A DNA stretch of 64,000 nt from NCBI GenBank assembly GCA_030390025.1, contig CM059431.1:147314001-147378000 (forward strand), given 5' to 3'. This document shows, piece after piece, positions 9,126-63,360 of this stretch. Within the stretch, counting starts at the first letter, position 1. Every line of letters starts with the position of its first letter. The notes under the pieces are model-generated. The model was not told the DNA's origin, did not search any database, and was given only the letters and a program-made list of their open reading frames with translations. Source of the stretch: Squalus acanthias. Lineage: Eukaryota. Position numbers and translations under genes: made by a program.

Positions 9126-9134
9126 TATTAGGGT

Positions 9135-9330
9135 TGGTGACCTATAGCTTGGTCAAAGAGGGAGGCTTTAAGGAGAATCTTAAAGGAGGAGAGAGAGGCG
9201 GAGAGGTTTAGGGAGGGAATTCCAGAGCCTAGCGGCTCAGGCAGCTGAAGACACAGCCACCAATAGTGGAGCGATGGAAATCGGGGGATGCGCAAGAGGC
9301 CAGAATTGGAGCAGCGCAGAGACCTTAGAG
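9135..9330 (-). mobile_element. L2-like LINE fragment that runs into the 36/37-bp array
   Basis: Homologous to 38780-38985, which continues to a LINE-type 3' tail at 38660. Confidence 0.6.
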
Positions 9331-12300
9331 GGATGTAGGGCTGGAGGAGGTTACAGAGATAGGGAGGGTTGTAGGACTGGAGGAGCTAACAGAGATAGGG
9401 ACAGTTGTAGGTCTGGAGGAGGTTACAGAGATAGGGAGGGTTGTAGGGCTGGAGGAGGTTACAGAGATAGGGAGGGTTGTGGGGCTGGAGGAGGTTACAG
9501 AGATAGGGAGGGTTGTAGGGGCTGGAGGAGGTTACAGAGATAGGGAGGGCTGTAGCGGCTGGAGGAGGTTACAGAGATAGGGAGGGTTGTAGGGCTGGAG
9601 GAGGTTACAGAGATAGGGAGGGCTGAAGGGGCTGGAGAAGGTTACAAAGATAGGGAGGGTTGTAGGGCTGGAGGATGTTACAAAGATAGGGAGGGCTGAA
9701 GGGGCTGGAGGATGTTACAAAGATAGGGAGGGCTGAAGGGGCTGGAGGAGGTTACAGAGATAGGGAGGTTTGTAGGGCTGGAAGAGGTTACAAAGATAGG
9801 AAGGTTTGTACGGGCTTGAGGATGTTACGGAGATAGGGAGGGTTGTAGGGGTGGAGAAGGTTACAGAGATAGGGAGGGTTGTAGGGACTGGAGTAGGTTA
9901 CACAGATAGGGATGGTTGTTGGGCTGGAGGAGGTTACAGAGATAGGGAGGGTTGTAAGGGCTGGAAGAGGTTACAGAGATAGGGAGGATTGTAGGGCTGA
10001 AGGATGTTATAGAGATAGGGAGGGTTATAGGGGCTGGATGAGGTTACAGAGATAGGGAGGGTTGTAGGGACTGGAGGATGTTATCGAGATAGGGAGTGTT
10101 GTAGGGGCTGGAGAAGGATACAGAGATAGGGAGGGTTGTAGGGCTGGAGAAGGTTACAGAGATAGGGAGGGTTGTAAGGGCTGGAGGAGGTCACAGAGAT
10201 AGGGAGGGTTGTAGGGGCTGGAGGAGGTTACAGAGATAGGGAGGGTTGTAGGGCTGGAGGAGGTTATAGAGATAGGGAGGATTGTAGGGGCTGGAGGATG
10301 TTACAGAGATAGGGATTGTTGTAGGGCTGGAGAACGTTACAGAGATAGGGAGGGTTGTTGGGCTGGAGGAGGTTACAGAGATATGGAGGGTTGTAGGCTG
10401 GAGAAGGATACAGAGATAGGGAGTGTTGTAGGGGCTGGAGGAGGTTACAGAGATCTTGTAGTGTTGTTTGGCTGGAGGAGGTTACAGAGAAAGGGAGGGA
10501 TGTAGGGCTGGAGGAGGTTACAGAGATAGGGAGGGCTGGAGGAGGTTACGGAGATAGGGAGGGTTGTAGGTCTGGAGGAGGTTACAGAGATAGGGAGGGC
10601 TGTAGGGCTGGAAGTGGTTCCAGAGACAGGAAGGTTCGTAGGGGCTGGAGGATTTTACAGAGAGAGGGAGGGTTGTAGGGCTGAAGGAGGTTACAGAGAT
10701 AGGGAGGGCTGTAGGGCTGGAAGTGGTTCCAGAGATAGGAAGGTTCGTAGGGGCTGGAGGATTTTACAGAGAGAGGGAGGGTTGTAGGGGTGGAGAAGGT
10801 AACAGAGATAGGGAGGGTTGTAGGGTCTGGAGGAGGTTACGGAGATGGGGAGGGTTGTATGGGCTGGAGAAGCTTACAGAGATAGGGAGGGTTGTAGGGG
10901 CTGGAGCATTTTACAGAGATAGGGAGGGTTGTAGGGGTGGAGAAGGTAACAGAGATAGGGTGGGTTGCAGGGCTGGAGGAGGTTACAGAGATAGGGAGGA
11001 TTGTAGGGGCTGGAGGATGTTACAGAGATAGGGAGGGTTGTAGGGCTGGAGAACGTTACAGAGATAGGGAGGGTTGTTGGGCTGGAGGAGGTTACAGAGA
11101 TATGGAGGGTTGTAGGCTGGAGAAGGATACAGAGATAGGGAGGGTTGTAAGGGCTGGAGGAGGTTACAGAGATCGGGTGGGTTGTAGGGGCTGGAGGAGG
11201 TTACACAGATAGGGAGTGTTGAAGGGGCTGGAGGAGGTTACAGAGATAGGGAGGGCTGTAGGGGGTTACAGAGATAGGGAGGTTTGTAGGGCTGAAGGAG
11301 GTTACAGAGATAGGGAGGGCTGTAGGGCTGGAAGTGGTTACAGAGATAGGAAGCTTCGTAGGGGCTGGAGGATTTTACAGAGAGAGGGAGGGTTGTAGGG
11401 GTGGAGAAGGTAACAGAGATAGGGAGGGTTGTAGGGTCTGGAGGAGGTTACAGAGATGGGGAGGGTTGTATGGGCTGGAGAAGCTTACAGAGATAGGGAG
11501 GGTTGTAGGGGTGGAGAAGGTTACAGAAATAGGGAGTGTTGTAGGGGTGGAGAAGGTAACAGAGATAGGGTGGGTTGTAAGGGCTGGAGGAGGTTACAGA
11601 TATAGGGAGGGTTGTAGGGGCTGGAGGAGGTTACAGAGATAGGGAGGGTTGTAGGGGCTGGAGGATGTTACAGAGATAGGGAGGGTTGTAGGGCTGGAGC
11701 AGGTTACAGAGATAGGGAGGGTTGTAGGGCTGGAGGAGGTTACAGAGATATGGAGGATTGTCGGCTGGAGAAGGATACAGAGATAGGGAGGGTTGTAGGG
11801 CTGGAGAAGGTTACAGAGATAGGGAGGATTGTAAGGGCTGGAGGAGGTTACAGAGATAGGGAGGGTTGTAGGGGCTGGAGGAGGTTACAGAGATAGGGAG
11901 GGTTGTAGGGGCTGGAGGAGGTTACAGAGATAGGGAGGGTTGTAGGGGCTGGAGGAGGTTACAGAGATAGGGAGGGTTGTAGGGCTGGAGGAGGTTACAG
12001 AGATAGGGAGGGTTGTAGGGGCTGGAGGAGGTTACAGAGATAGGGAGGGTTGTAGGGGCTGGAGGAGGTTACAGAGATAGGGAGGGTTGTAGGGCTGGAG
12101 GAGGTTACAGAGATAGGGAGGGTTGTGGCGCTGGAGGAGGTTACAGAGGTAGGAAGGGTTTTAGGGCTGGAGGAGGTTACAGAGATAGGGAGGGTTGTAG
12201 GGGCTGGAGGAGGTTACAGAGATAGGAGGGTTGTAGGGCTGGAGGAGGTTACAGAGATAGGGAGGGTTGTAGGGGCTGGAGGAGGTTACAGAGATAGGGA

Positions 12301-15300
12301 GGGTTGTAGGGCTGGAGGAGGTTACAGAGATAGGGAGGGTTGTAGGGCTGGAGGAGGTTACAGAGATAGGGAGGGTTGTAGGGCTGGAGGAGGTTACAGA
12401 GATAGGGAGGGTTGTAGGGCTGGAGGAGGTTACAGAGATAGGGAGGGTTGTAGGGGCTGGAGGAGGTTACAGAGATAGGGAGGGTTGTAGGGGCTGGAGG
12501 AGGTTACAGAGATAGGGAGGGTTGTAGGGCTGGAGGAGGTTACAGAGATAGGGAGGGTTGTAGGGGCTGGAGGAGGTTACAGAGATAGGGAGGGTTGTAG
12601 GGGCTGGAGGAGGTTACAGAGATAGGGAGGGTTGTAGGGCTGGAGGAGGTTACAGAGATAGGGAGGGTTGTAGGGGCTGGAGGAGGTTACAGAGATAGGG
12701 AGGGTTGTCGGGCTGGAGGAGGTTACAGAGATAGGGAGGGTTGTCGGGCTGGAGGAGGTTACAGAGATAGGGACGGTTGTAGGGGCTGGAGGAGGTTACA
12801 AAGATAGGGAGGCTTTTTGGGCTGGAGAAGATTAGAGAGATAGGGAGGGTTGTGTGGGCTGGTGGAGGTTACATAGATAGGGAGGGTTGTAGGGGCTGGA
12901 GGAGGTTACAGAGATAGGGAGGGTTGTAGGGTCTGGAGGAGGTTACAGAGATAGGGAGGGTTGTAGGGCTGGAGGAGGTTACAGAGATATGGAGGGTTGT
13001 AGGGGTGGAGAAGGTTACAGAAATAGGGAGTGTTGTAGGGCTGGAGAAGGTTACAGAGATAGGGAGGGTTGTAAGGGCTGGAGGAGGATACACAGATAGG
13101 GAGGGTTGTAGGGGCTGGAGGAGGTTACAGAGATAGGGAGGGTTGTAGGGGCTCGAGGAGGTTTCAGAGATGGGGAGGGTTGTAGGGCTGGAGAAGGTTA
13201 CAGAGATAGGGAGGGTTGTAGGGCTGGAGGAGGTTACAGAGATATGGAGGGTTGTAGGGCTGGAGAAGGTTACAGAGATAGGGAGGGTTGTAAGGGCTGG
13301 AGGAGGTTACAGAGATAGGGAGGGCTGTAGGGGCTGGAGGAGGTTACAGAGATAGGGAGGGTTGTAGCGGCTGGAGGAGGTTACAGAGATAGGGAGGGTT
13401 GTAGGGGCTGGAGGAAGTTACAGAGATAGGGAGGATTGTAGGGCTGGAGGAGGTTAGAGATAGGGAGGGTTGTAGGGACTGGAGGAGGTTACAGAGATAG
13501 GGAGGGTTGTAGGGGCTGGAGGTGGTTTCAGAGATCTTGTAGTGTTGTTTGGCTGGAGGTGGTTACAGAGATAGGGAGGGCTGTCGGGGCTGGAGGAGGT
13601 TACAGATATAGGGAGGGTTGTAGAGGCTGGAGGAGGTTACAGTGATAGGGAGGGTCGTATGGGCTGGAGGAGGTTACACAGATAGGGAGGGCTGTAGGGG
13701 CTGGAGGAGGTTACAGAGCTAGGGAGGTTTGTAGGGCTGGAGGAGGTTAGAGATAGGGAGGGTTGTAGGGGCTGGAGGAGGTTACAGAGATAGGGAGGGC
13801 TGTCGGGGCTGGAGAAGGTTACAGATATAGGGAGGGTTGTAGGGGCTGGAGGAGGTTGCAGTGATAGGGAGGGTTGTATGGGCTGGAGGAGGTTACACAG
13901 ATAGGGAGGGCTGTAGGGCCTGGAGGAGGTTATAGAGATAGGGAGGTTTGTAGGGCTGGAGGAGGTTACAGAGATAGGGAAGGCTGTAGGGGCTGGAGGA
14001 GGTTACAGAGATAGGGAGGTTTGTAGGGCTGGAGGAGATTACAGAGATAGGGACTGTTGTAGGGCTGGAGGAGGTTACAGAGATAGGGAGGGTTGTAGGG
14101 ATGGAGGAGGTTACAGATATAGGGAGTGGTGTATGGGCTGGAGGAGGATACAGATATGGGGAGGGTTGTAGGGGCTGGAGGAGGTTTACAGAGATAGGGA
14201 GGGTTGTGGCGCTGGAGGAGTTTACAGTGGTAGGGAGGGTTGTAGGGGCTGGAGGAGGTTACAGATATAGGGAGTGTTGTCAGGGCTGGAGGAGGTTACA
14301 GAGATAGGGGGTGCTGGAGGGGCTGTAGGAGGTTACGGATATAGGGAGGGTTGTAGGGCTGGAGGAGGTTACAGAGATAGTACTATTTGTAGGGGCTGGA
14401 GGAGGTTACAGAGATCGGGAGGGTTGTAGGGGTTTACAGAGATTGGGAGGGTTGTCGGGGCTGGAGAAGGTAACAGAGATAGGAAGAGTTGTCGGGGCTG
14501 GAGAAGGTTACATAGATAGAGAGGGTTGCAGGAGTTGGAGGAGGTTACAGAGATAGTGTGGGTTGGAGGGGGTTACAGAAATAGGGAGGGTTATAGGGGC
14601 TGGAGGAGGTTATAGAGATAGGGAGGGTTGTAGGGCTGGAGTAGGTTACAGAGATAGGGAGGGTGTAGGGGCTGGAGGAGGTTACAGAGATAGGGAGGGT
14701 TATAGGAGCTGGAGGAGGTTACAGAGATAGGGAGGGTTGTAGGGGCTGGAGGAGGTTACAGAGATAGGGAATGTTGTAGGGGCTGGAGGAGGTTACAGAG
14801 ATAGGGAGGGTTGTAGGGCTGGAGTAGGTTACAGAGATAGGGAGGGTGTAGGGCTGGAGGAGGTTATAGAGATAGGGAGGAGTGTAGAGGCTGGAGAAGG
14901 TTACAGAGATAGGGAGGGTTGTAGGGGCTGGAGGAGGTTACAGAGATAGGGAGGGTTGTAGGGGCTGGAGGAGGTTATAGAGATAGGGAGGGTTATAGGA
15001 GCTGGAGGAGGTTACAGAGATGGGGAGGGTTGTAGGGGCTGGAGGAGGTTACAGAGATAGGGATGGTTGTAGGGCTGGAGGAGGTTACAGAGATAGGGAG
15101 TGTTGTAGGGGCTGGTGGAGGTTACAGAGATAGGGTGGGTTGTAGGGGCTGGAGGAGGTTACAGAGATAGGGAGGGTTGTAGGGGCTGGAGGAGGTTACA
15201 GAGATAGGGAGGGTTGTAGGGCTGGAGGAGGTTACAGAGATCGGGAGTGTTGTAGGGGCTGGAGGAGGTTACAGAGATAGGGAGGGTTGTAGGGGCTGGA

Positions 15301-15570
15301 GGAGGTTATAGAGATAAGGAGTGTTGTAGGGGCTGGAGGAGGTTAAAGAGATAGGGAGGGTTGTAGGGGCTGGAGGAGGTTACAGAGAAAGGGAGGGTTG
15401 TAGGGGCTGGAGGAGGTTATAGAGATAGGGAGGGTTGTAGGGGCTGGAGGAGGTTACAGAGATAGGGAGGGTTGTAGGGCTGGAGGAGGTTACAGAGATA
15501 GGGAGGGTTGTAGGGGCTAGAGGAGGTTACAGAGATAGGGAGGGTTGTAGGGGCTGGAGGATATTACAGA
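9330..15570. repeat. 36/37-bp minisatellite (GGAGGAGGTTACAGAGATAGGGAGGGTTGTAGGG[G]CT)n, ~6.2 kb
   Basis: Unit read directly. Confidence 0.97.
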
Positions 15571-15604
15571 GCCGGCCAGGAGTGCGCTGGAATAGTCGAG
15601 TCTG

Positions 15605-15936
15605 GGGAGAGAGAACGAGAGAGGGATAGAGAGAGTGGGGAGAGAGAGCAAGAGAGGGAGAGAGAAGGAGGTGTGGATAGAGAGAGAGAGTCGATAGAGA
15701 GGGAACGCGAGAGGGAGAGAGAAAGAGAGGGGGATAGATGGAGAGAGAGAGAGTGGGGGGATAGGGAGAGAGAGTGGGGAGAGAGAACGAGTGGAGGGAG
15801 AGAACGAGAGAGGGAGAGAGAACGAGAGAGGGAGAGAGGGGAAGAGAGAAGGAGAGAGCGAGAGAGAGAACGAGAGAGCGATAGAGAGAGAGAGAGTGGG
15901 GAGAGAGAACGAGAGAGGGAGAGAGAAAGAGAAGGC

Positions 15937-15973
<37 letters not shown>

Positions 15974-18385
15974 GAGAGAGAACGAGAGAGGGAGGGAGAA
16001 CGATAGCGGGATAGAGAGAGAGAGTGGGGAGAGAGAGAACGAGAGATGGAGGGTGAGAACGAAAGGGGGATAGAGAGAGAGAGAGGGTGGGGAGAGAGAG
16101 AGTGGGGAGAGAGAACGAGAGAGGGAGAGAGAGACGGAGAGAGGGAGAGAGAGAACGAGAGAGGGATAGAGAGAGAGAGTGGGGAAAGAGAGACGGAGAG
16201 AGAAGGAGGTGTGGATAGATAGAGAGGGAACGAGAGAGGGAGAGAGAAAGAGAGGGGGATAGAGGGAGAGAGAGAGGGGTGAGAGAACAAGTGGGTGGAG
16301 AGAATGAGAGAGGGAGAGAGAATGAGAGGGGGAGGGGGAGAGAGGGGGAGAGAGAAGGAGAGAGGGATAGAGAGAGAGAGTGGGGAGAGAGAGAACGAGA
16401 GAGGGCGATAGAGAGAGAGAGAGTGGGGATAGAGAACGAGAGAGGGAGAGAGAAGGAGGGGGGACAGGGAGAGAGAGTGAACGAGAGAGGGAGAGAGAGA
16501 GGGGGGAGAGAACGAGAGAGGGAGAGAGAATGAGGGGGGAGAGGGAGAGAGAATGAGGGTAGGGAGGTAGAGAGAGGGAGAGGGGGAGAGAAACGGAATG
16601 AGAGTGGGGTAGAGAAAGAGTGAAGAGAGTGGGGAGAGAGAGAGAGTGTGGGGAGAGAGAGAACGAGAGAGGGGAGGGAGGGAGAGAGGGAGAGGGGAGG
16701 GGGGAGAGAGAGAGAATGGGGAGAGAGAGAACGAGAGAGGGGAGAGAGAGAGAAGGGGGAGAATGAGAGAGTGGGGATAGAGAACGACAGAGGGAGAGAG
16801 AAGGAGGGGGATAGGAGAGAGAGTGAACAGGAGAGGGAGAGAGAGAGAGGGGAGAGAGAACGAGAGGGGGGAGAGAGAAGAGTTGGGAGACGGGGAGAGA
16901 AACTGAATGAGAGTGGGGTAGAGAAGGAGAGAGAGAGTGTGGGGAGAGAGAGAATGAGAGAGGGGAGGGAGGGAGAGAGAGGGAGAGGGGAGGGGGAGAG
17001 AGAGAGAATGGGAACAGAGAGAACAAGAGAAGGGGGAGAGTGTCGGGAGAGGGAAAGGGGGAGAGAGAGGGAATGAGAGAGGGAGAGAGAAGGAGATGGT
17101 GATAGAGAGAGAGTGGGGAGAGAGAACGAGAGAGGGGAGGGAGAGAGACAGAGCTAGAGAGACAGAACGAGAGAGGGAGAGAAAGAACAAGAGGGGAAGA
17201 GAGCGGGGAATAGGGAGAGAGAGTGGGGAGAGTGGGAACGAGAGAGGGAAAGAGGATGAGAGGGGGAGAGAGAGGGGGTGGAGAGAGAGTGGGGAGAGAG
17301 AGAATGAGAGAGGGGAGGGAGGTAGAGAGTGGGGAGGGAGAGGGGGAGAGAAAGGGAATGAGAGCAGGGTAGAGAAAAAGAGAGAGTGCGAGAGGGAGAG
17401 AGAACGAGAGGGGTGAGAGAGAGAGGAAACAGAGAGGGAGCGAGAGAGGGAGCGAGAAGGGGAGTGATAGAGAGGGGGAGAGATGGGGGAGAGGGGGGGA
17501 GAAGGAGGGAGAGGGACAAAGAGGGGGGAGGATGGGAGAGAGGAAGGAGAGAGTGAGGGGGAGGGAAGAGGAGAGAGACTGGGTGAGAGTCAGGGAAGAG
17601 AGCAGGGGATAAAGGGAGAGAGACAGAGCAGGGGTGAGGTGTGGAGAGATTTCCCGCTCCCTCCCTTTCTATCTCTCTCTCTTTATCCCCTCTCTCTCTA
17701 TCTCTCTCCTTTTCAATCTCTCTCGCTTTCTCTCTCTATCCCGCCCTATCTCTCTCTCTCTGGCTGCCTCTTCTATCTATCTCTTTACCTTTCTATCACT
17801 TTCCTTTTCTAGCTCTCTTTCTATCTCACCCTTTCTATCTCACTTTTTATCTCTCCCTTTCTATCCCTCTATCTATATATCTCTTTCTATCCCTCTCTAT
17901 CTCTCTCTTTCTTTCTCTCCCTTTCTATCTCTTTCTATTTCTATCTCTCTCTCTCCCTTTCTATGTCTCTCGATCACTTTCTGTCACCTCTCACTTTCTA
18001 TCTCTCTAACCCTCTCTCTCTTTCTATTCCTCTCTCTCTTCCACAGCCTCTCTATCCTCTCTCTCTATCTCTCTCTATTCCTCTCTCTGTACCTCACTCC
18101 CTCTCACTTTCTCCCGTTCTGTCTCTCTCCCGTTCTATCTCTCTCTCTATCCTCTCTATCTTTCTATCCCTCTTGCCCTGTCCCTTTCTATCTCTCCCTC
18201 TATCCCCTCTCTCTTTCTATCTCGCTCTATCCCTCTCTCTTTCTATCTCTCTATTGCTTTCTATCTCTCTCTCTATCCCCTCTCTCTTTCTATCTCTCTC
18301 CTTCTATCCCTCTCTATTCTCTCTCTATCCCTCTCTCCCATTCTATCTCTCTCTCTATCCCCTCTCTCTTTCTCTCTATCCCCTC
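15605..18385. repeat. Polypurine (GA-rich) tract switching to polypyrimidine (CT-rich) tract at ~17645
   Basis: Composition read directly; paralog at 39900-41435. Confidence 0.92.
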
Positions 18386-18425
18386 CCTTGTCTAACGCGA
18401 GCCCATCTTCCTCCTCTTCCCGTAG

Positions 18426-18525
18426 CCTCCCGCTCTGGATCGCCCGCATCCTGGAGACCGCCACCCGCAAGAGACGGAACCGGAGCCGAAGGCACGAGGC
18501 GTATCGACTGATCGGACGGAGACTG
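18426..18525 (+). CDS. Putative exon 1 (of 3 visible) of unannotated gene X copy 1: LPLWIARILETATRKRRNRSRRHEAYRLIGRRL
   Basis: Acceptor CTTCCTCCTCTTCCCGTAG, donor CTG/GTAGGG (phase 0); the three differences I see against copy 2 are all synonymous. Confidence 0.7.
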
Positions 18526-18599
18526 GTAGGGCAACTCGCCGGGGATTCTCCGACAGCCACTCCCATAGCCCGACCTCCCGAATCCCGACCCCTGACCCC

Positions 18600-19320
18600 C
18601 AAACCATTCCCCCGAACCCCAACCCCCAAACTGTTCCCCAACCCTCAAACCGTTCCCCAACCCCCAAACTGTTCCCCAACCCCCAAACCGTTCCCCAACC
18701 CCCAAACTGTTCCCCAACCCCCAACCCCCAAACTGTTCCCCAACCCCAAAACTGTTCCCCAACCCCCAAACTGTTCCCCAACCCCCAAACTGTTCCCCAA
18801 CCCCCAAACTGTTCCCCAACCCCCAAACTGTTCCCCAACCCCCAAACTGTTCCCCAACCCCCAACCCCCAAACCGTTCCCCAACCCCCAAACCGCTCCCC
18901 AACCCCCAAACTGTTCCCCAACCCCCAACCCCCAAACTGTTCCCCAACCTCCAAACTGTTCCCCAACCCCCAAACTGTTCCGCAACCCCCAAACTGTTCC
19001 CCAACCCCCAAACTGTTCCCCGACCCCCAAACCGTTCCCTGACCCACAAACCGTTCCCTGACCCACAAACCTTTCCTCCATCCCCTGAACCCTGACCCCA
19101 AACCGTTCCCTGACCCCTGACCACTAAACTGTTCCCTGACCCCTGACCCCAAAACTTGACCCCCAAACCTTTTCCCAACCCACAAACCTTTTCCCAACCC
19201 CCAAACATTACCCTGTCCCCTAAACCATTCCCTGTCCCCTCAATCGTTACCCTGACCCCTAAAACTTTCCCTTGACCCCTGACCCCAAACCTATCTTGGA
19301 CCCCCAAACATTACCCATGA
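18600..19320. repeat. ~19-bp C-rich intronic minisatellite (CCCCAAACTGTTCCCCAAC)n, degenerating 3'
   Basis: Read directly; shorter paralog at ~41640-41990. Confidence 0.88.
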
Positions 19321-19441
19321 CCTCTGAACCCTTCCCTGACCCCAAACCTTCCCCCCGACTCCCCGCGACACTAACGGTCTTCAGTCCCCAACCCTCAATC
19401 CGCCGATCTCCATTAACTCCCTTTCTCTCTCTCCCGAGCAG

Positions 19442-19570
19442 TGGAAAGCTGGGCTCGGACTCCAGCGCTGCCCGTGGCCGACCTACGTCTACCCGCGGGA
19501 GCTGAAACAGGCCGTGCGCCAGGCCTTCCCCGGACAGCTGCGGGATTATCCGGACCCACAGCACAGCAGG
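19442..19570 (+). CDS. Putative exon 2 of gene X copy 1: WKAGLGLQRCPWPTYVYPRELKQAVRQAFPGQLRDYPDPQHSR
   Basis: Polypyrimidine tract plus NAGNAG acceptor (GAGCAG), donor AGG/GTAAGG, 129 nt, phase 0-0, open. Confidence 0.7.
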
Positions 19571-19816
19571 GTAAGGATCGTACGGGAGCGTTACCCGTTC
19601 TGGGAGAAGGGGGTGGGAGTCCTGGAGGGAGAGGACTCCTGGGATTATACGCCCCTGGTATCTCACCTCGCCCTCCTCCCGCCCCGAGCCCTAGGCTGTC
19701 AGTGTCGGAGGGATATTCGCATGTGGCGTGCATCGCGGTGGAACGCCATTCCCGTCCTCACCTGGACCCACGCTCGCACGGACCCTGGCGCTGGGTTACT
19801 GTGGGGGCGTCGCTGC

Positions 19817-22418
19817 CCCATCAAACACTCCCAGGGCAGGTACAGCACGGGTTAGATACAGAGTAAAGCTCCCTCTACACTGTCCCATCAAACACTCCCA
19901 GGGCAGCTACAGCACGGGTTAGATACAGAGTAAAGCTCCCACTACACTGTCCCATCAAACACTCCCAGGGCAGGTACAGCACGGGTTGGATAAAGAGTAA
20001 ATTCCCTCTACACTATCCCATCAGACACTCCCGGGGCAGGTACAGCACGGGTTAGATAAAGAGTAAATTTCCTCTACACTGTCCCATCAGACACTCCCAG
20101 GGCAGGTACAGCACGGGTTAGATACAGAGTAAAGCTCCCTCTCCACTGTTCCATCAAACACTCCCAGGGAAGGTGCAGCACGGGTTAGATACAGAGTAAA
20201 ACTCCCTTTACACTGTCCCATCAAACACTCCCAGGGTAGGTACAGCACGGGTTAGATACAGAGTAAAGCTCCCTCTACACTGTCCCATCAAAGACTCCCA
20301 GGGCAGGTACAGCAATGGTTACATACAGAGTAAAGCTCCCTCATAACTGTCCCATCAAGCACGCCCAGGGCAACTACAGCACGGGTTAGATACAGACCGG
20401 TAAGCCTGACATCGGTAGTGGGGAAAATGCTAGAGTCCAATCTAAAAGTTGTAATAGCAGAGCACTTGGAAAACAGTGATCGGATCGGACAAAGTCAACA
20501 TGGATTTACAAAAGGTAAATCGTGCTTGACTAATCTACTGGAATTTTTTGAGGATGTAACTGGTAAAATAGATAAGGGACAACCAGTGGATGTTGTGTAT
20601 TTGGACTTTCAAAAGGCTTTCGATAAGGTCCCGCATAAGAGATTAGCGTGTAACGTTAAGGCACATGTGACTGGGGGCAAGGTATTGACTTGGATAGAGA
20701 ACTGGCTGGCAGACAGAAAGCAAAGAGCTGGAATAAACGGGTCTTTTTCCAAGTGGCAGGCAGTGACTAGTGGGGTACCGCAGGGATCGGTCCTTCGACC
20801 CCAGCTATTCACAATATATATTAATGATCCAGACAAGGGAACTAGATGTAATATCTCCAAGTTTGCAGACGACACAAAGCTGGGTGGGCGTGTGTGCTGT
20901 GTGGAGGATGCCGAGAAACTCCAGTATGATTTGGACAGGTTGGGTGATTGGGCAGAAGCATGGCAGATGCAATATAACGTGGATAAATGCGAGGTTATCC
21001 ACTTTGGTGTCAAAAATAGGAAGGCAGATTATTATCTGAATGGCAATAGATTGGGAGAAGGGGAAGTGCAACGAGACCTGGGTGTCCTTGTGCACCAGTC
21101 GCTGAAGGTAAGCATGCAGGTGCAGCAGGCGGTGAAGAAGGCAAATGGTATGTTGGCCTTCGTAGCGAGAGGGTTTGAGTACAGGAACAAGGATGTCTTG
21201 CTGCAGTTGTACAGGGCCTTGGTGAGACCACATCTTGAGTATTGTGTGCAGTTTTGGTCGCCTTATCTGAGGAAGGAGGTTCTTGCCATGGAAGGAGTGC
21301 AGTGAAGATTCACCAGGCTGATACCTGGGATGGCAGGAATGACGTATGTGGAGAGATTGGGGAGATTGGGCTTATACTCGCTGGAGTTTAGAAGAATGAG
21401 AGAGGATCTCACTGAAACTTATAAAATTCTAACAGGTCTGGACAAACTAGATGCAGGAAGGATGTTCCCGATGGTCGGAGAGTCCAGAACCAGGGGTCAC
21501 AGTCTAAGGATAAGGGGTAAGCCATTTAGGACAGAGATGAGGAGGAATTTCTTCACCCAGAAAGTGGTGAACCTGTGAAATTCTCTACAACAGAAGGCAG
21601 TAGAGGCCAATTCATTAAATCTATTCAAGAAGGAGTTGGATATATTTCTTAAGGCTAAAGGGATCAAGGGTATGGAGAGAAAGCAGGGACAGGGTTCTGA
21701 ATTTAGATGATCAGCCATGATCGCATTGAATGGCGGAGCAGGCTCGAGGGGCCGAATGGCCTACTCCTGCTCCTATCTTCTATGTTTCTATGAGTAAAGC
21801 TCCCTCTACACTGTCCCATCAAAAACTCCCAGGGCAGGTACAGCACTGGGTTAGATACACAGTAAAGCTCCCTCTACACTGTCCCATCAAACACTCACAG
21901 GGCAGTTACAGCACGGGTTAGATACAGAGTAAATCTTCCTTTACACTGTCCCATCAAACACTCCCAGGGCAGGTACAGCACGGGTTAGATACAGCGTAAA
22001 GCTCCCGTCTAGTTTCCCATCAAACACTCCCAGGGCAGGTACAGCACGGGTTAGATACAGAGTAAAGCTCCCACTAGTGTCCCATCAAACACTCCCAGGG
22101 CAGGTACAGCATGGGTTAGATACAGAGTAAAACTCCCTCTAGTTTCCCATCAAATACTCCCAGGGTAGGTACAGCTCGGGTTAGATACAGAGTAAAGCTG
22201 CCTCTGCACTGTCCCATCATACAATTCCAGGGCAGGTCCAGCACTGGGTTAGATACAGAGTAAAGCTCCCTCTGCACTGTCCCATCAAACGCTCCCAGGG
22301 CAGGTACAGCACTGGGTTAGATACAGAGTAAAGCTCCCTCTACACTGTCCCATCAAACACACCCAGGGCAGGTAAAGCATGGGTTAGTTACAGAGTTAAG
22401 CTCCCTCTACACTGTCCA
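19817..22418. repeat. 67-bp minisatellite (CCCATCAAACACTCCCAGGGCAGGTACAGCACGGGTTAGATACAGAGTAAAGCTCCCTCTACACTGT)n, split by a CR1 insertion
   Basis: Unit read directly at 19817-20396 and 21793-22418. Confidence 0.95.
20397..21792 (+). mobile_element. 5'-truncated CR1 LINE (RT domain plus 3' UTR)
   Basis: [46 protein letters not shown]; internal stops; tail CTATGTTTCTATG. Confidence 0.96.
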
Positions 22419-22516
22419 ATTATCCTGCTCCTACTAGTGAGGTTGACTGATTGGCCTGTGGGGGGCGAGGTGACGTGAACCGTTTTTGCGCTGACTGTAC
22501 GCTCTTGCTTTCCGAG

Positions 22517-22564
22517 GTTGTACCTGGGACCGTTGAGGACCTGTGGCTATTGGAGGATGAGTGA
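22517..22564 (+). CDS. Putative terminal coding exon of gene X copy 1: VVPGTVEDLWLLEDE*
   Basis: Branch-like CTGAC and acceptor CTCTTGCTTTCCGAG, phase 0, TGA at 22562-22564 conserved in copy 2. Confidence 0.55.
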   Translation, partial: VVPGTVEDLWLLEDE

Positions 22565-22780
22565 GAGAGTCACGATCCGGAGGAGAGGCTTTGCGAGTGG
22601 CAGTAGGGCAGGTTCAATACTTCCATCCTGTTCCGGAATGGATCCAGAACCACTGGAACTCACAAAGTGGTCTCTGATCCCTTTCGTTCCTCAGGACCTT
22701 GCAGAGATGGGCGGGATCTCCTGCGGATTGTCCACCTCCGTCTCCCAACTGGGCCAGAAATCAATCAGGAGATCCATCGA

Positions 22781-22950
22781 CCAGCCTGGGATTCAACTAA
22801 TCAGACCATCCATCTCCCAGCCTTGGGATCAACCAATCAGAACATCCATTTCCCAGCCTGGGGTTCAACCAATCAGATCTTTTCTCTACCAGCCTGGGGT
22901 TCAACCAATCAGATATTTACTCTACCGGCCTTGCGATCAACCAATGAGGT
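22781..22950 (+). repeat. 36-bp tandem repeat with AACCAATCAG (CCAAT-box consensus) in most units
   Basis: About five units CCAGCCTGGGGTTCAACCAATCAGA...; longer paralog at 49431-49672. Confidence 0.8.
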
Positions 22951-22974
22951 TGTTGGTGTTGAATTAACCTATAG

Positions 22975-23260
22975 TGACTGCTCCCTCATTCGGTCCCCGC
23001 GAGCCTGCTCCGACATTCAATGAGATTATGGCTGATCTGTGTGCGATGTCCATCTACCCACCTTGGTTCCGTAACCCTTAATACCCTCACCCAACAAAAA
23101 TCTATCAATCTCAGTTTTGAAATTTTCAATTGACCCCCCACCAGCCTCAACAGCCTGTTGGGGGAGAAAGTTCCAGATTTCCACTCCCCTTTGTGTGAAG
23201 AAGTGCTTCCTGACATCACCCCTGAACGGCCTGGCTCTAATTTTAAGGTGATGATACCCT
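22975..23260 (-). mobile_element. CR1 3' fragment
   Basis: RARPFRGDVRKHFFTQRGVEIWN...KTEIDRFL; longer paralog at 49695-50180. Confidence 0.8.
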
Positions 23261-23285
23261 TTGATTATCAGACCCCACACACACA

Positions 23286-23321
<36 letters not shown>

Positions 23322-23414
23322 GCAGGAAAGGCCCAGGCTCCATCCCCGGCCTGTGCTGAGTTAGCTGAGGAGTGAGGTTTAGGAACACAACAAGTCCCTG
23401 ATGGACTCACCCGT

Positions 23415-25686
23415 CTCCCTGTCTCTGTAACCTCCTCCAGCCCTACAACCCTCCCTATCTCTGTAACCTCCTCCAGCCCCTAAAACCCTCCTTATCTCTG
23501 TAACCTCCTCCATGCCCTATAACACTCCCTATCTATGTAACCACCTCCAGTCCGACAACACTCCCTATCTCTGTAACCTCCTCCAGCCCTACAACCCTCC
23601 CTCTCTCTGTAACCTCATCAAGCCCCTACAACCCTCCCGATCTCTGTAACCTCCTCTAGCCCTACAACCCTCCCTGTCTCTGTAACCTCCTCCAGCCCTA
23701 CAACCCTCCCTAGCTCTGTAACCTCCTCCAGCCCCTACAACACTCCCTAGCTCTGTAACCACATCCAGCCACTACAACACTCCCTAGCTCTGTAACCACA
23801 TCCAGCCCCTACAACCCTCCCTATCTCTGTAACCTCCTCCAGCACTACAACCCTCCCTATCTCTGTAACCTCCTCCAGCACCTACAACCCTCCCTATCTC
23901 TGTAACTTCCTCCAGCCCGACAACCCTCCCTATCTCTGTAACCTCATCCAGCCCTGCAACCCTCCCTATCTCTGTAACCTCCTCTAGACCTGCAACCCTC
24001 CCTATCTCTGTAATCTCCTCCAGCCCGACAAACCTTCCTTTCACTGTAACCACCTCCAGCCCCTACAACCATCTTTATCTCTGTAACCACATCCAGCCCC
24101 TACAACCCTCCCTATCTCTGTAACCTCCTCCAGCACTACAACCCTCCCTATCTCTGTAACCTCCTCCAGCACCTACAACCCTCCCTATCTCTGTAAACAC
24201 CTCCAGCCCCTACATGCCTCCCTATCTCTGTAACCTCCTCCAGCCCTACAACCCACCCTATCTCTGTAACCTCCTCTAGCCCCTACAAACCTCCCTCTCT
24301 CTGTAACCTCATCAAGCCCCTACAACCCTCCCGATCTCTGTAACCTCCTCTAGCCCTTGATCAGGGAGTCGGATGCAGCATTTCCAAATTTGCAGACGAC
24401 ACTAAACTAGGAGGGGCGGTGGGCTCAGAGGAGGAGACCAGGAAGCTCCAGAGCGATTTGGACAGACTGGGTGATTGGGCGGATAAATGGCAGATGCACT
24501 ATAATGTGGACAAGTGCGAAGTTATCCACCTTGGGTGCAGGAACGGGAGGGCAAATTATTATTTAAATGGCAATAAATTGGGAGAGGGGGAAGTACAGAG
24601 AGACCTGGGTGTTCATGTACACCAGTCACTGAAGGCGAGCATGCAGGTGCAACAGGCGGTCAAGAAGGCAAACGGTATGCTGGCCTTCATAGCAAAATGG
24701 TTGGAATACAGGAACAGGGATACCTTGCTGCAGCTGTACAGGGCACTGGTGAGACCACACCTCGAGTACTGTGTACAGTTTTGGTCACCTCATCTGAGGA
24801 AAGATGTTCTTGCCATGGAGGGGGTGCAGCGGCGATTCACCAGGCTGATACCAGGAATGGCGGGATTGACCTATGAGGAGAGACTATGTCGTTTAGGGAT
24901 GTACACACTGGAGTTTAGAAGATTGAGAGGGGACCTCACAGAAGTGTATAAAATTCTGACAGGTCTAGACAGACTAGATGCAGAAGGAATGTTTCCCTTG
25001 GCGGGTGAGAACAGAACTAGAGGACATAATTTAAGGATAAGGGCTAAACCATTTAGGACAGAAATGAGGGGGAATTTCTTCACTCAGAGGGTGGTGAACC
25101 TGTGGAACTCATTGCCACAGAGGGCAGTGTACGCCAGCTCATTAAATATATTTAAGAGGGAATTAGATATATTTCTACAGGCAAAAGGGGTTAAGGATTA
25201 CGGAGAGAAGGCGGGGACGGGATACTGAATTGGAGGATCAGCCATGATCTCATTAAATGGCGGAGCAGGCTCGAAGGGCCGGATGGCCTACTCCTGCTAC
25301 TATCTTCTATGTATCTATGTATCTATGTATCTCTGAAACCTCCTCCAGCCCCACAACCCTCCCTATCTCTGTAAACTCCTCCAGACCCTACATGCCTCCC
25401 TGACTCTGTTACCTCCTCCAGCACCTACAACCCTCCCTATCTCTATAACCTCCTCCAGCCCTACAACCCTCCCTATCTCTGTCACCTCCTCCAGCCCCAA
25501 AAACCCTCCTTATCTCTGAAAACTTCTCCAGACCCTACAACCCTCCCGATCTCTGTAACTTCCTCCAGCCCTACAACACTCCCTATCTCTAACATCCTCC
25601 AGCCCCTACAACACTCCCTATCTCTGTAACCTCCTCGAGCCCTACAACCCTCCCTCTCTCTGTAACCTCATCAAGCCCCTACAACC
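23415..25686. repeat. 36/37-bp minisatellite in opposite orientation (CCTCCCTATCTCTGTAACCTCCTCCAGCCCTACAAC)n, interrupted by CR1 and ending at the gap
   Basis: Reverse complement of the 9330-15570 unit. Confidence 0.93.
24358..25330 (+). mobile_element. 5'-truncated CR1 LINE with uninterrupted ORF2 C-terminus
   Basis: SKFADDTKLGG then ORF 24419-25228 open to the native-looking stop; (TATCTATG)n tail. Confidence 0.95.
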
Positions 25687-28943: not shown

Positions 28944-31900
28944 TGTCATAAATCGCAAGTAACAACTCAGGAAGTACTACTGGGCGGCCAGCTGGGGCGC
29001 CGTCCAGGGAGTATAAATACTCAGGCATGGGCCCACCTTGGGCAGAGACAATCTGGAAACAGGAAGCTAGTGACTGCTAACTAGACCTCCATGTTTTGTT
29101 ACAAGTTGATTAAAGCCTTGCTTTATGTTCAAGTGCGTAGTGAGTCTTTATTACGTCAATTTAATCAACTTGATATCGTCTCCACGCTTTGGGTGATTCG
29201 GAACAACCAGCTGCAACTCGAACCACAGAAGGGAACTTGGGCAAGAAACTGATCCATCATGGAAAAACTCCTTAGACCCGCTCGTCTCGACCTGGACCCG
29301 AATGCACCTGCGGCAGCAAAGGTATGGAAGCATTGGTTTCGTACCTTTAGCAACTTTCTTGAAGAATGTGGGGCGGATGTCCCTAATAAGTTACGAATGC
29401 TTATCAACTACGTGTCTCCTCATGTGTATGATTATATTGAGGACTGTATAGACTATGACACTGCTATCGAAATCTTACAGCAGCTATTTGTCAAGTCCCC
29501 AAATGAAATCTTTGCTCGACACCTACTGGCCACAACTCGGCAGCAGCCTTGGGAATCACTCGATGAATTTCTCCAGAAACTTCGCAGGCTCAGCAAGGAT
29601 TGTAACCTTAAAGCAGTTTCAGCTGAACAGTATCAAGAGGAACTAATCCGCGATTCCTTTATCAATGGAATCGCGTCCCCTTTTATACGTCAGCGCCTGC
29701 TGGAAAATAAAACCCTCAATTTACGGGCTGCTTATGACCAGGCGTGTTCCTTGGACTTGGCCAAGAAAAATGCAGACACTTATCTCCCACCACGTGCACG
29801 GGCGGCGGCTATCTCCTTTAATGAGTCTTTCGGTAGGTCTCGGGCGGATGCCCCCACTGATGCTGACTCTACTCTAACGGACGACGACCCTACCCTAGAG
29901 GCCTTCGCTGATGACGACCCCGCCCTAGCAGCATCCTGGCAATCAGGAAGAAAGTGTTTCTTTTGTGGAGGGGCGTGCCATCACAGAAAATTTTGCCCGG
30001 CTCGTAATGTGACCTGCAATCATTGCAGCAAGAAAGGACACTTTTCCAAGGTATGCCAGTCACGGGCCTTTGCTAACAAGAAAGGCCGCTCCTCTAAAGT
30101 ATACCAGTCGAGAGCTCCTGTTAGCTTCACAGCTGCTATCTATGGAGCTGCTCCTCCCCCAAGAACTACTGTTAAGGCTACAGTTGCCGAAGGGAAAATT
30201 GCCCCTCCTCCCATCACGGCTGTTTTTCCCCAAAGTTTGTCCCATGCAGCCACGAAGGTTTCAGTAAATGGGCACACTCTAAGCGCGCTAATCGACTCCT
30301 GCAGCTCTGACAGCTTCATTCGTAAGCGGGCTGTCAACAGGTAAAAACTGCACATTTATCCCTCGGACAGGGAGATTGCAATGGCTCTGACGACTCTGAC
30401 CACCAATTCTTCTGGCTTCTGTCTGGTCAACCTCATCCTCAACGGCCGCACGTATCTCTCCACGCGGCTCGGAGTACTCGCAAACTTATGCAGGGATGTG
30501 CTTCTGGGACAGGACTTCCAGAAGCAGCACAAGAAGATCACTTTTGAGTTTGGAGGGTCAAGGCCGGAGCTTACCATTTCTAAGGTGCCGTTTTGTGCAC
30601 TCTCGGCGGCCTTACTCGGTGAACCCTCCCTGTTTGCCAATCTTCCCCCCCGCTGTCAACCCATAGCCACCAAATCGCGGCGCTTTAGTCAAGACGATCG
30701 AGCGTTTATTGAGGCGGAAATCTCTCGCCTTTTAGTCGACGGTATTATCGAGCCATGTTCATCTCCCTGGCGGGCTCAGGTCGTCATCGTGAGGAATGCC
30801 TTAAAACAACATAAAAAACGTCTGTGTATTGATTATTCGCAGACTATTAATCTATATACCGATCTGGATGCCTACCCGCTGCCACGCATAGATGACATGG
30901 TCAACAACCTTGCCAAATACAAGGTATTCTCGACCTTCGATATAAAAAGCGCGTACCATCAGGTGCCACTGCAAGACTCCGACAAGAAGTATACGGCCTT
31001 TGAGGCCAATGGTCGGCTTTTCCAGTTTCGCCGCCTTCCATTCGGGGTCACCAATGGGGTGGCCGTCTTCCAACGGGCCATGGATGGCCTAGCCAGCAAG
31101 AGAACTTGACGGATACCTTTCCGTATTTAGACAATATCACTATTGCCGGCCATGATCAAAAGGAGCATGACGCCAATCTTCAGCGATTTTTTGACGTACT
31201 CCCCCGTCGCCACTTAACGTTAAACGAATCCAAATCGGTGAAGTCGGTGCCATCAGTTTACATTCTTGGCTACTGGGTGGGCAACGGTGTTATTAAACCG
31301 GACCCAGAGCGACTTCGTCCACTTCAGGAGCTCCCTCCCCCGACGAACCTCGGCTCTCTTCGTCGGGCACTTGGCATGTTTGCTTATTACGCAAAATGGA
31401 TACCACACTTCTCCGATAAAATACAGCCCCTGCTCCATGCGAAGTCTTTTCCATTGGAAGCTACGGCTATTTCTGCCTTCAACCTCCTCAAACGACAGCT
31501 GGAGAAAGCCACGCTTCGCTCCATTGACGAAAATCTTCCTTTTGTGGTCGAATGCGATGCATCGGAGGTGGCGATCTCCGCTACCTTGAATCAAGGTGGC
31601 CGACCCGTGGCATTCCTATCCAGAACCTTGCAGGGTAGCGAGCTCCATTACCCCCCCATCGAGAAGGAGGCTACGGCCATCATCGAGGCTGTACGCCAAT
31701 GGGGTCATTTTCTTGCTCGGCGTCATTTTACGCTTATAACTGACCAGCGCTCTGTGGCCTTCATGTTGGAAAACCGGAGGCGCACGAAAATCAAAAATAA
31801 TAAAATTCAACTCTGGAGGATGGAGCTGGCTGCCTTCGGATATACTATCTGTTACCGACCCGGCAAACAGAACGTGGCCCCAGATACCTTCACACGGGCA

Positions 31901-33450
31901 TTTTGCTTCTCAATGTCAACGTCGACTCTGGCGGATTTGCATATGGACTTATGCCATCCTGGTGTGACCCGCATGTTGCACTTTGTGCGCTCCAAAAATC
32001 TACCATTTTCAACCGAGGACGTAAAGAAAACATGCTCCTCCTGTAGGATTTGTGCAGAATTGAAACCACAATTCTTTCGCCCATCAGATGGCTTACTCAT
32101 ACATGCAATGCAGCCTATGCAGAGGCTCAGCATAGACTTTAAAGGGCCATTGCCATCGTCGACAAGGAACACCTGCCTACTTACGATGGTGGACGAGTAT
32201 TCACGCTTTCCCTTCGCCTTCCCCTGCCCTAATATGCTTACCTCTACGGTAATTAAATGCCTCGATCAGGTCTTTTCCCTTTGCGGGACGGCCAATTTTA
32301 TCCACACTGATCGGGGTCCCTCCTTTATGTCGAGTGAACTTAAAAGTTATCTCTCCCAACGGGGAATCGCCTCAAGTAGGACGACACCATATCACCCAAT
32401 CGGTAACGGACAGGTTGAACGATACAATGCCATCATCTGGAACGCTGTCCGTCTGGCACTAAGGTCACGCAACCTGCCGGACCAGCAGTGGGAAACGGTG
32501 CTCCCCGACGCGTTACACTCTATCAGGTCTCTTCTCTCCACATCTACTAATGTCACGCCTCATGAGCGATTCTTCAAATTCCGGCGTCGCTCTACACATG
32601 GGACGTCTCTACCGTCATGGTTGGTGGCTCCAGGCCCGGTACTACTCCGGAGGTTCGTCCGATCTGCCAAAAACGACCCTCTCGTTGACGAGGTGGAGTT
32701 AACGGAGGTAAACCCCACGTATGCGCACGTATGGTACCCTGATGGCCGGGAGACCACCGTCTCGCTCCGAGATCTGGCTCCCTGCCCAACCGGTCACACA
32801 GGCCCGAATGATGAAGGATCCCCCGACAATGATATCAACACTCCGCACCCCTATGAAAATGACGCCCCGCCTGGGACATCGGGGGATCTGCCGGCAACGC
32901 TACCGGATCCACTCAGGGAGCTGGACGCTCCCCGTAGGATGGCCACCCGAAACCAGGACGCCGGACAATCTCCAGCCACGACCCGGATGAGGCCAGCTCA
33001 GCACCTGTGGGGACCCGCTCCCGGAGTCATGATATTCCCAGTCCTCCACAGGATGATCAAGATGACGCGGACTCTACTGACTTACCGGTACGGGCCAAGC
33101 GACCCAGGGACCAGGACACGGTCCGGGGAGACGTGCCTTCCAGTCACAAGCAGAGAGCTAAACGTCTGCGGCTATATCTGGTCCGCCTAGTCCGTTAAAG
33201 GAAGACTGGACTTCCAAACCTTTTCGGGAGGAAGAATGTCATAAATCGCAAGTAACAACTCAGGAAGTACTACTGGGCGGCCAGCTGGGGCGCCGTCCAG
33301 GGAGTATAAATACTCAGGCATGGGCCCACCTTGGGCAGAGACAATCTGGAAACAGGAAGCGAGTGACTGCTAACTAGACTCCATGTTTTGTTACAAGTTG
33401 ATTAAAGCCTTGCTTTATGTTCAAGTGCGTAGTGAGTCTTTATTACGTCA
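28944..33450 (+). mobile_element. Full-length Ty3/Gypsy LTR retrotransposon (Mag-like Gag), LTRs 28944-29158 and 33237-33450
   Basis: TG...CA LTRs differing by one substitution and one indel on my reading; 5-bp TSD GCGGG (28939-28943, 33451-33455); PPT GGGAGGAAGAA at 33226-33236. Confidence 0.97.
29259..33190 (+). pseudogene. Gypsy gag-pol (two CCHC knuckles, protease LIDSCS, RT, RNase H, integrase HHCC/DDE), disrupted
   Basis: In-frame TAA at 30342-30344 between same-frame ORFs 29259 and 30381; frameshift near 31100; domain order PR-RT-RH-IN. Confidence 0.92.
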
Positions 33451-36329: not shown

Positions 36330-36419
36330 TTTCTGACCGCTTTGGGGAGCTCAGGCTGTCTGGGGGGAGGTGGGAGTCTCATCTGGTACTTCTGCAATAA
36401 ATCCTCCAGAATCCCACCT

Positions 36420-37380
36420 GACCAACCCCAAACCCTCACACCCCTCAACCCCTCACCCACTCTAACCCCTCACCCCTCAACCACACCTAACCCGTCACCC
36501 CCTCTAACCCCTCACCCCTCACCCCTCTAACCCCCTCACCCCTCACCCCTCTAACCCCTCACCCCTCACCCCTCAGCCCCATCTAACCCCTCACCCCCTC
36601 TAACCACTCACACCTCAGCCCCATCTAACCCCTCACCCCCTCTAACCCCTCACCCCCTCTAACCCCTCACCCCTCACCCCTCAGCCCCATCTAACCCCTC
36701 ACCCCCTCTAACCCCTCTCCCCTCAGCCCCATCTAACCCCTCACCCCTCACCCCCTCTAACCCCTCACCCCCTCTAACCCCTCACCCCCTCTAACCCCTC
36801 ACCCCCTCTAACCCCTCTAACCCCTCACTCTCTCTAACCCCTCACTCCCTCTAACCCCTCACCCCCTCTAACCCCTCACCCCCTCTAACCCCTCACCCCC
36901 TCTAACCCCTCACCCCTCACCCCTCACACCCCCAACCCTCTCTGTCTCCTCCCACCTCACACTCCCAATCTTCAAACCCTCCTACCTAAGCCTCCACCTC
37001 CCTAACCCCTCTCCCCCTCACTCTTCTCCCCTCACACTCCTCCCACAAACCTCCCACCCCACACCTCACACCCCCAGCCCTCACACCCCTCTCCTCCCTC
37101 CCCCCACCTCATCAATCTCAAACCCTCACAACCCTCTAACCCCCCACCCATCACACCCTCAAACCTCGCCGCCTCCCCCACCTCACGCTCTCCCCCAACC
37201 TTCAACCTCATCCCCCCACCTACCCAACCCTCTCCCGCCCCACACACCCACCCCCCCCCGAACCCCTCACCCCTCACCCCCGGCTCCTCCAAACCACCCC
37301 CAACCACAAAACCCCCAACCCTCAACCCCCGACACCCTTCATACTTCTCCCCCTGACTCCTCTCTCCTCACCCCCGCCCC
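36420..37380. repeat. C-rich telomere-like repeat (CTAACCCCTCACCCC)n and low-complexity tail
   Basis: Read directly. Confidence 0.88.
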
Positions 37381-37796
37381 CCGGCTCCCACACTCTCCCA
37401 ACTGCAGCCTGGTCAGTTGTCTGAAATCAGACGTCTAGTCATCGCCGAATTGACCAATCGCTGGTGTTAGTACATGTGCGGTGTTTTGCTTATTGTCGCC
37501 TGAGCTTAAAGTAAAGGGTTAGCCCTGTGTCTGCTGAAGTATAATCAGCAATTGTGATACGCAACGGATGCTTGCCTGCAATCTATTGATGATTTTTAAG
37601 CAAATGAAGTGTATAAATGTAAGATTGTTCAAGCAGCACGAAAGGGCCCATGCCTTGGTCCACGTGCTCTATCTGTGACAATACTCCACTTCGTAAATTG
37701 CTTTTTATACTGAAGTTAATGAATAAAATGTTAAAACCAGAAGACTGAAATCATTATTAGTCAAGTGAACAAACAGAAGTAGGTTTGGGACAACAC

Positions 37797-45153: not shown

Positions 45154-45253
45154 GAGTAAAGCTCCCTCTACACTGTCCCATCAAACACTTCCACGGCAGG
45201 TACAGCACGGGTTAGATACAGAGTAAAGCAACCTCTACACTGTCCATTCAAAC

Positions 45254-63345: not shown

Positions 63346-63360
63346 CTTTCTGATTGGCAG

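Follow-up and report, generated by a model that had tools for sequence, protein, structure and literature searches.

A probable four-exon gene of an unnamed animal protein family within the ecto-ADP-ribosyltransferase gene cluster of Squalus acanthias, and its weak likeness to the P2X7 ballast domain

Background

Mouse ecto-ADP-ribosyltransferase (ART) enzymes ADP-ribosylate P2X7. The ballast domain of P2X7 (ZCD, PF20478) is defined as a ZCD by a zinc-coordinating cysteine motif, and the residues in contact with GDP are R546, H547, R574, R578, and K583, according to Rump 2020 (PMC7016195). The ballast fold is also carried by the Kolobok KolX proteins, as reported in Kojima 2022 (PMC9587614). 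A second group of relevant proteins, here called the PTYVYP family after its invariant motif, is exemplified by Natator depressus LOC141999845 (P0075), Ranitomeya variabilis LOC143809250 (P0051), Siphateles boraxobius LOC143744506 (P0071), Aldrovandia affinis AAFF_G00322030 (P0057), and Exaiptasia diaphana AIPGENE20647 (P0066). Here, a small gene was analyzed in a stretch of 64,000 nucleotides from Squalus acanthias (assembly GCA_030390025.1, contig CM059431.1; C7:147314001-147378000 in a genome of 3.7 Gb), referred to below as the window. An original prediction had joined three islands of this stretch, located between minisatellites, into a hidden spliced gene for a divergent ballast-type guanine-nucleotide-binding protein. 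Our results indicate that the islands are very probably exons 2 to 4 of a four-exon gene of approximately 103 residues, which belongs to a conserved, unnamed metazoan family, is present in 16–17 copies in an ART gene cluster, and is damaged in the copy that bears the islands.

Exon structure and splicing

A unit of approximately 14 kb was found twice in the window. The unit bearing the predicted islands was designated copy A (9127-23721), and the second copy of the whole unit was designated copy B (38775-51149). Exons are numbered according to the gene: its exons 2, 3, and 4 are exons 1, 2, and 3 of the original prediction, and exon 1 is a first coding exon added in this work. The parts of copy A are the following.

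18426-18525, + strand: exon 2, 100 bases, starting in phase 2 and encoding PLWI, a basic cluster, and AYR
18526-19441, + strand: intron between exons 2 and 3, carrying a minisatellite with the 19-base unit CCCCAACCCCCAAACTGTT at 18595-19280
19442-19570, + strand: exon 3, 129 bases, encoding the PTYVYP, K, R, and YPDP of the family
19571-22516, + strand: intron between exons 3 and 4, in which 67/68-base arrays at 19813-20396 and 21792-22417 flank a reverse-transcriptase fragment
22517-22564, + strand: exon 4, 15 codons followed by TGA

The islands at 18427-18525, 19439/19442-19570, and 22517-22564 translated as originally written, and the AG and GT borders were seen: exons 2 and 3 are each preceded by AG and followed by GT, and exon 4 is preceded by AG and ends with TGA. 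Together with exon 1, the whole coding sequence comprises 35 + 100 + 129 + 45 bases, or 103 codons, in intact copies. The exon frames of copy A stay open into the flanking repeats, and open frames by themselves are weak evidence for coding. Tandem repeats occupy 32.6 of the 64 kb of the window, and the intron between exons 2 and 3 differs in length from copy to copy (394 to 1946 bases).

The reverse-transcriptase fragment in the intron between exons 3 and 4 lies at 20334-21302 in copy A and at 43717-44378 in copy B, with 93.4% identity. Since it is common to both copies, it was inserted before their duplication; it is absent from at least one other copy (L013).

Sequencing runs were compared with one stretch comprising exon 3 and its unique flanks (19281-19812). 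In run X1 (110 million letters), a contig of 482 bases matched exactly 19441-19572, across exon 3, and its loose ends were the final 30 bases of exon 2 and the opening 30 bases of exon 4. Two contigs of run X3, which came from the same study, had the same continuation from exon 3 into exon 4. The loose ends were matched by eye to the rows of two copies (L023 and L007). Both predicted junctions, 18525 to 19442 and 19570 to 22517, and the hidden spliced gene itself were correct, being bridged by these RNA-like contigs. As regards the alternative acceptors proposed at 19439 and 19442, the distal AG (19442) was used, and the optional extra Gln is therefore not present in the spliced form. A contig of run X2 stops at 19570 yet includes 50 intron bases and is ambiguous. 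The X1 contig extends 221 letters past exon 3, and the transcript has at least approximately 220 bases of 3′ untranslated region.

In all 16 genomic pairs, exons 2 and 3 lie at least 394 bases apart, so that the joined contigs are not explained by a retrocopy in this assembly. The sequence of the RNA-like contigs differs from that of copy A, and we infer that the transcripts seen derive from other copies.

A conserved family of animal proteins

Searching of 1.84 billion representative proteins by phmmer with the 44 residues of exon 3 retrieved, at a cut-off of E ≤ 1e-3, 20 proteins with E values down to 4e-23, identities of 43–68%, and about 50% identity over the whole exon. A search with the family profile gave 55 proteins at E ≤ 1e-3, corals included. 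The members come from teleosts, frogs, sea turtles, corals, and a sea anemone and are named "uncharacterized" or "hypothetical protein" in their sources (Ranitomeya, Anomaloglossus, Caretta, Phoxinus, Siphateles, Aldrovandia, Albula, and Exaiptasia). No Pfam family was found on any of the 55 members, barring one model fused to its neighbour CFAP96 (PF15239). Single exons searched against Pfam and PDB sequences gave nothing useful, rows of BamD at E 0.2 being due to chance; the ESM Atlas returned merely unrelated unnamed clusters with exon 3 and with P0066, and a literature search for the motif PTYVYP found no paper.

Proteins of the family start with M-(D/E)-x-Y-x-x-x-C-x-x-(F/L/Y)-(G/S), with (I/V/L)P.W coming immediately after. 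The hallmarks of the N-terminal part are M.xY...C..(F/W)G, (I/V/L)P.W, and a basic RRK cluster with a conserved Tyr behind it; those of the core are G.G, the invariant PTYVYP, K-x3-R, FP, and a Y followed by PDP (D/N-Y-P-D-P); and that of the C-terminal part is a VV.VT.EDL block, which matches exon 4. All of the invariant or near-invariant residues of the core encoded by exon 3 are present in copy A (PTYVYP, K-x3-R, Y, the P of YPDP, and V). The blocks of exons 2, 3, and 4 are co-linear in the family, the full-length members of which have 105–117 residues, and the shark protein was identical to turtle P0075 at 44 of 88 positions, counted from the turtle Met. An insertion in P0058 is situated exactly at the border of exons 2 and 3, and in the frog protein P0069 the exon 3 block is repeated with the same borders; these cases hint that the intron positions may be common to the family.

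Two further observations were made on family members. In the frog models P0049 and P0069, the exon 3 block is present twice, in tandem. The teleost members P0059 and P0081 are annotated as CHCHD7, and one of them carries a fused CHCH domain; from this, the family gene seems to adjoin chchd7 in those fishes.

First coding exon and its loss from copy A

According to the original prediction, no upstream exons were identifiable and the N-terminus could not be given. This holds for copy A, which lacks the N-terminus, but a first coding exon of 12 residues was found in copy B. The relevant features are the following.

39480-39916, + strand: upstream island of copy B, the last 181 bases of which are 94–99% identical in 8 other copies
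39880-39914, + strand: exon 1 of copy B, ATG, 11 codons, and 2 bases, followed by GT at 39915
15563-15605, + strand: deletion scar of copy A, where the first ~35–40 bases of the upstream island are left, followed by a GA-rich array

The island that holds exon 1 in copy B is 96–98% conserved from copy to copy. The phase of exon 1 in copy B suits the phase-2 start of exon 2, and its codons fit the family start in the form M-(D/E)-x-Y-x-x-x-C-x-x-aromatic-G/S. Exon 1, with its ATG and GT, is kept in 9 of the 16 copies; within the window, its pattern occurs a single time, in copy B. From these features, exon 1 would be spliced to exon 2. When the island 39480-39916 was used as the query, no match was detected in copy A, from which approximately 400 bases, including the first coding exon, have been removed. 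With the rest of the island deleted, copy A is missing the first coding exon and the likely promoter.

Among the islands of the unit, the upstream one is conserved best. Just 5′ of exon 1 of copy B, at 39800-39870 (~39820-39855), it carries a TGATGTCA-like motif and the GC-box-like GGGCGGGG, and this part is a possible promoter. The 37-base minisatellite unit at 9328-15571 holds GGAGGTTACAGAGA, one base shorter than the GGAGGTTTACAGAGA of exon 1 (39880-39900), and this 37-base array borders the deletion that took exon 1 from copy A. In two other islands (37237-37798 and 38474-38972), every frame is interrupted by stops.

Copies in the shark genome

Exon 3 was found in 16 genomic copies, with 91–100% protein identity, and exon 2 in 17 copies. 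They are located on C7 (five inside 270 kb), C1296, C2450, C348, C464, C514, and C3632. The remaining exons of copy B in the window are the following.

41471-41570, + strand: exon 2, intact
42095-42223, + strand: exon 3, with loss of one base and an in-frame TAA
49169-49216, + strand: exon 4

The acceptor AG of exon 2 was observed in all 16 copies and its donor GT in 12 of the 16, with TT in the four copies on C2450; these four have in common a TAA in exon 3 and the change of the donor from GT to TT. Exon 4 was seen in four copies, three of which have the acceptor AG. Among the 16 copies, variant alleles numbered 43 in 228 exon sites versus 139 in 466 flank sites, and pi at codon positions 1, 2, and 3 was 0.031, 0.038, and 0.068, respectively, compared with 0.059–0.069 in the flanks. 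In X6, a genomic contig from another organism, the 31 listed differences comprise 3 in 129 exon bases and 28 in 382 flank bases, and 2 of the 3 exon differences are synonymous, as judged from codons read by hand.

Copy A is a 5′-truncated paralogue in which exons 2–4 and the splice sites are kept. Copies A and B are probably both dead, because copy A is without exon 1 and exon 3 of copy B is interrupted by a frameshift and a stop.

ART genes and other elements

The copies of the small gene lie, together with minisatellites, inside an ART gene cluster. Three ART exons (PF01129) were found in the window.

453-1290, - strand: ART exon with a frameshift and with TAG in place of the Arg that other copies have in VYRG
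35529-36326, + strand: ART exon split across three frames
63354-64000, + strand: open ART exon running past the window end

At least 35 matches to the ART exon are present in the genome, mostly on C7 and on small scaffolds shared with the small gene, and in 6–7 units an ART exon is located 5–11 kb upstream on the same strand. When ART exons were compared across units (6-1355 versus 35463-36849), the identity was ~77% in DNA and 55–70% in protein, compared with 85–98% in DNA for the small-gene part. The ART part and the small-gene part of the unit seem to differ in their history, either through gene conversion or through separate spread. In a further genomic stretch (L036, C514:61367-71366), the first 1185 bases contain an ART exon that is open for 395 residues by way of a 21-base tandem repeat (RVRQSD units).

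Outside these genes, the window contains a remnant of a long-terminal-repeat retrotransposon pol (reverse transcriptase, RNase H, and integrase) at 30345-33187 on the + strand. A 2545-base unit occurs in three tandem copies at 54900-61600; in each copy, the + strand bears a frame resembling reverse transcriptase and the - strand a GIY-YIG-like one, and these units may be Penelope-like remnants.

Alternative explanations

The position of the copies suggests that the exons might be the 3′ end of the upstream ART gene, encoding its cytoplasmic tail or forming untranslated exons, since 6 of the 16 copies have an ART exon of like orientation within the 10 kb examined on their upstream side, and coordinates place another at 11 kb in a seventh copy. 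However, the ART exon closes with a hydrophobic tail and a stop of its own, an ATG exon belonging to the small gene is placed between ART and exon 2, full-length homologues of 105–117 residues without an ART domain exist elsewhere, and the small-gene units are 94–98% identical in DNA as against the 55–70% protein identity of the ART exons. The small gene is most probably a neighbour of ART and not an ART tail, and an origin of the exons from ART is very unlikely. Alternatively, the exons could be frames left open by chance in unique, GC-rich islands, or parts of a spliced RNA that is non-coding. A second reading frame of the joined exons 2–4 is open for 82 codons, these exons are without any Met, the ratio of nonsynonymous to synonymous change (dN/dS) among paralogues is near 0.65, and three independent disabling events were found among the 16 copies, all of which would suit such an origin. 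It is contradicted by the 20 phmmer matches of exon 3; protein homologues from cnidarians to turtles follow the predicted frame across all exons, codon position 3 is the most variable, and AlphaFold2 gave confident models for two family members. We consider chance frames or non-coding RNA extremely unlikely. Several observations nevertheless weigh against a coding gene of a conserved family. The dN/dS of ~0.65 falls only a little short of 1 (26 nonsynonymous and 2 stop changes versus 15 synonymous ones, with 508:176 possible), a value expected where functional copies are mixed with dead ones. A stop is present in exon 3 of 6 of the 16 copies, from which it follows that much of the gene family is decaying in this genome, and exon 4 showed no constraint among the four copies seen. 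The "RNA?" kind of runs X1–X3 is a guess of the tool, none of them being listed as RNA on record, and the RNA-like contigs, compared with 19281-19812, contain no joint of exons 1 and 2; gaps in the cover of this stretch by X1–X3 carry no weight as evidence. No mammal or bird was among the named matches of the profile search, which is not proof of absence; a word-indexed protein search with exon 3 gave no match at the "longer" lengths; and the family members have no function on record.

The remaining alternative concerns what kind of protein is encoded. In extension of the original prediction, the GDP-contacting C-terminal half of the ballast (ZCD/KolX) would have given rise to the PTYVYP family as free-standing proteins without the cysteines, which would still bind a guanine nucleotide. 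The shark peptide and the ballast protein of the same genome gave a Smith-Waterman score of 46, versus 26 ± 4.5 for shuffles, of which 6 in 1000 scored as high. Against a ballast hidden Markov model (HMM) built from 47 sequences, the shark peptide scored 6.1 bits, a value reached by 1 of 2000 shuffles, and the sea-anemone member scored 9.4 bits, versus 6.7 for the best of 857 scored shuffles (1060 made); hhalign of nine shark variants with the ballast gave a P of 4.7e-4 over 70 columns. Every alignment had one register, AY(R/K)...W..G.(L)G...P-x7-R-x2-(F/Y)P-x5-Y, and its Pro, Arg, and Tyr, spaced as P-x7-R-x10-Y, rank with the most strongly conserved columns in both families; both structural alignments reached the C-terminus, as predicted by the sequence alignment. 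As a precedent, Kojima 2022 (PMC9587614) describes a few piggyBac families encoding a protein that resembles the KolX C-terminal part without most of the cysteines. On the other hand, the likeness signal became weaker, not stronger, once the family profile replaced the shark sequence. Profile-profile comparison gave P values of 0.021 with 21 sequences and 0.13 with 53 sequences (12 of 200 column shuffles as high), and further comparisons gave 0.17, 0.18, and 0.042 (13, 14, and 10 of 150 column shuffles as high, respectively); against the ballast HMM, 3 of 53 members scored above the 95th percentile of shuffles. Dilution of the ballast signal by fast-evolving teleosts was considered and rejected, as 13 of 150 shuffles were as high with non-teleost members and 14 of 150 with invertebrates only; a teleost subset brought no improvement either. 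PF20478 gave no match at E ≤ 10 to single exon peptides and none at E ≤ 1 in 20 family members, and its six-frame scan of the genome detected the true ballast gene at C1:169189797 (132 bits) and a weak site on C21, with none of the 16 copies. The family profile, and likewise P0066, had no match at E ≤ 10 among PDB sequences, whereas the ballast profile finds P2X7 there at 1e-28 to 1e-30. Foldseek, as proposed in the original prediction, gave no PDB row at E ≤ 1e-3 with the two models and did not list any P2X7 chain; re-alignment against 15 PDB chains yielded nothing useful. The zinc cysteines that define the ZCD in Rump 2020 (PMC7016195) are absent, and the ballast gene of this genome, the product of which shares 90% identity with a protein of Scyliorhinus canicula, is one continuous frame where the PTYVYP gene has introns. 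Moreover, the motifs TYVYP, TYIYP, and YPDP are absent from four supplements of Kojima 2022 (PMC9587614), and the ballast hypothesis was framed after the similarity had been noticed. Descent from the ballast half with a bound guanine nucleotide is rather unlikely.

The residue-level claims of the original prediction can be judged separately. Exons 2–4 encode one Cys, with E and L at the places of the paired ballast cysteines, and the 53 members have no conserved Cys cluster. Search for a Cys-rich ballast exon upstream (3319 frames, 16 × 10 kb) gave scattered, unshared CC matches only, at E 0.7–10. At the positions of R546, H547, R574, R578, and K583, the shark peptide has R, H, K, R, and G in the Smith-Waterman alignment with its own ballast; across the family, K and R alone are near-invariant, and the His of RH.AYR is unconserved. 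The likeness itself persists in that the protein is co-linear with the last ~50–90 ballast residues and the shark peptide beats shuffles, but the family profiles are not significant. Membership among ballast-type proteins was not borne out: the gene falls into a distinct family of proteins of ~105 residues with neither a PF20478 match nor a cysteine cluster.

Predicted protein and significance

AlphaFold2 models of two family members had pLDDT (predicted local distance difference test) values of 84.3 and 86.8 and predicted a compact helix-helix-helix-strand-helix-strand-helix domain. The protein would be soluble and intracellular, and its RRK cluster (helix 3) and near-invariant Lys and Arg (helix 4) would serve to bind a ligand with phosphate groups (a nucleotide or nucleic acid). 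We offer this prediction of a soluble intracellular protein binding such a ligand through conserved basic residues as a tentative one; it draws on the conserved charges and the weak ballast likeness. It is unlikely, although conceivable, that the PTYVYP family as a whole, with approximately 105 residues and an animal-wide distribution, is a free-standing, cysteine-less remnant of the nucleotide-binding half of ballast/KolX that has kept the Lys/Arg pair and the Tyr of the GDP site and was amplified with ecto-ART genes in one shark lineage. No transposase was found beside the shark copies in the window.

If the ballast likeness is real, the protein would provide P2X7 biology with a minimal soluble model of the GDP-binding ballast half and would add a third lineage to the history of ballast and KolX. 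The locus is also of value for studying the evolution of multigene clusters, with 16–17 near-identical copies next to far more diverged ART exons and with deletions at satellite borders.

Comparison with known systems

With the ballast/ZCD (PF20478), the PTYVYP protein shares the Tyr of AYR, a Gly, and P-x7-R-x2-FP-x5-Y, to which the shark protein adds N...RH, and it weakly matches rat P2X7 498/507-595 in structure. It differs from the ballast in having neither the zinc cysteines nor the N-terminal half of the domain, in the presence of introns, and in an extra C-terminal strand and helix encoded by exon 4; the whole protein is shorter than the ballast domain, PF20478 having 192 positions. The piggyBac relatives (Kojima 2022, PMC9587614), compared by their description, embody the same idea of a cysteine-poor protein with the C-terminal part only. 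With the PTYVYP proteins of other animals, the shark protein shares the length class, the order of blocks from the Met to VV.VT.EDL, and the invariant residues, and the intron positions may be the same as well. The shark gene is different from these in being present at 16–17 copies in an ART cluster, with large minisatellites inside it, with many of its copies broken, and with exon 1 lacking from copy A.

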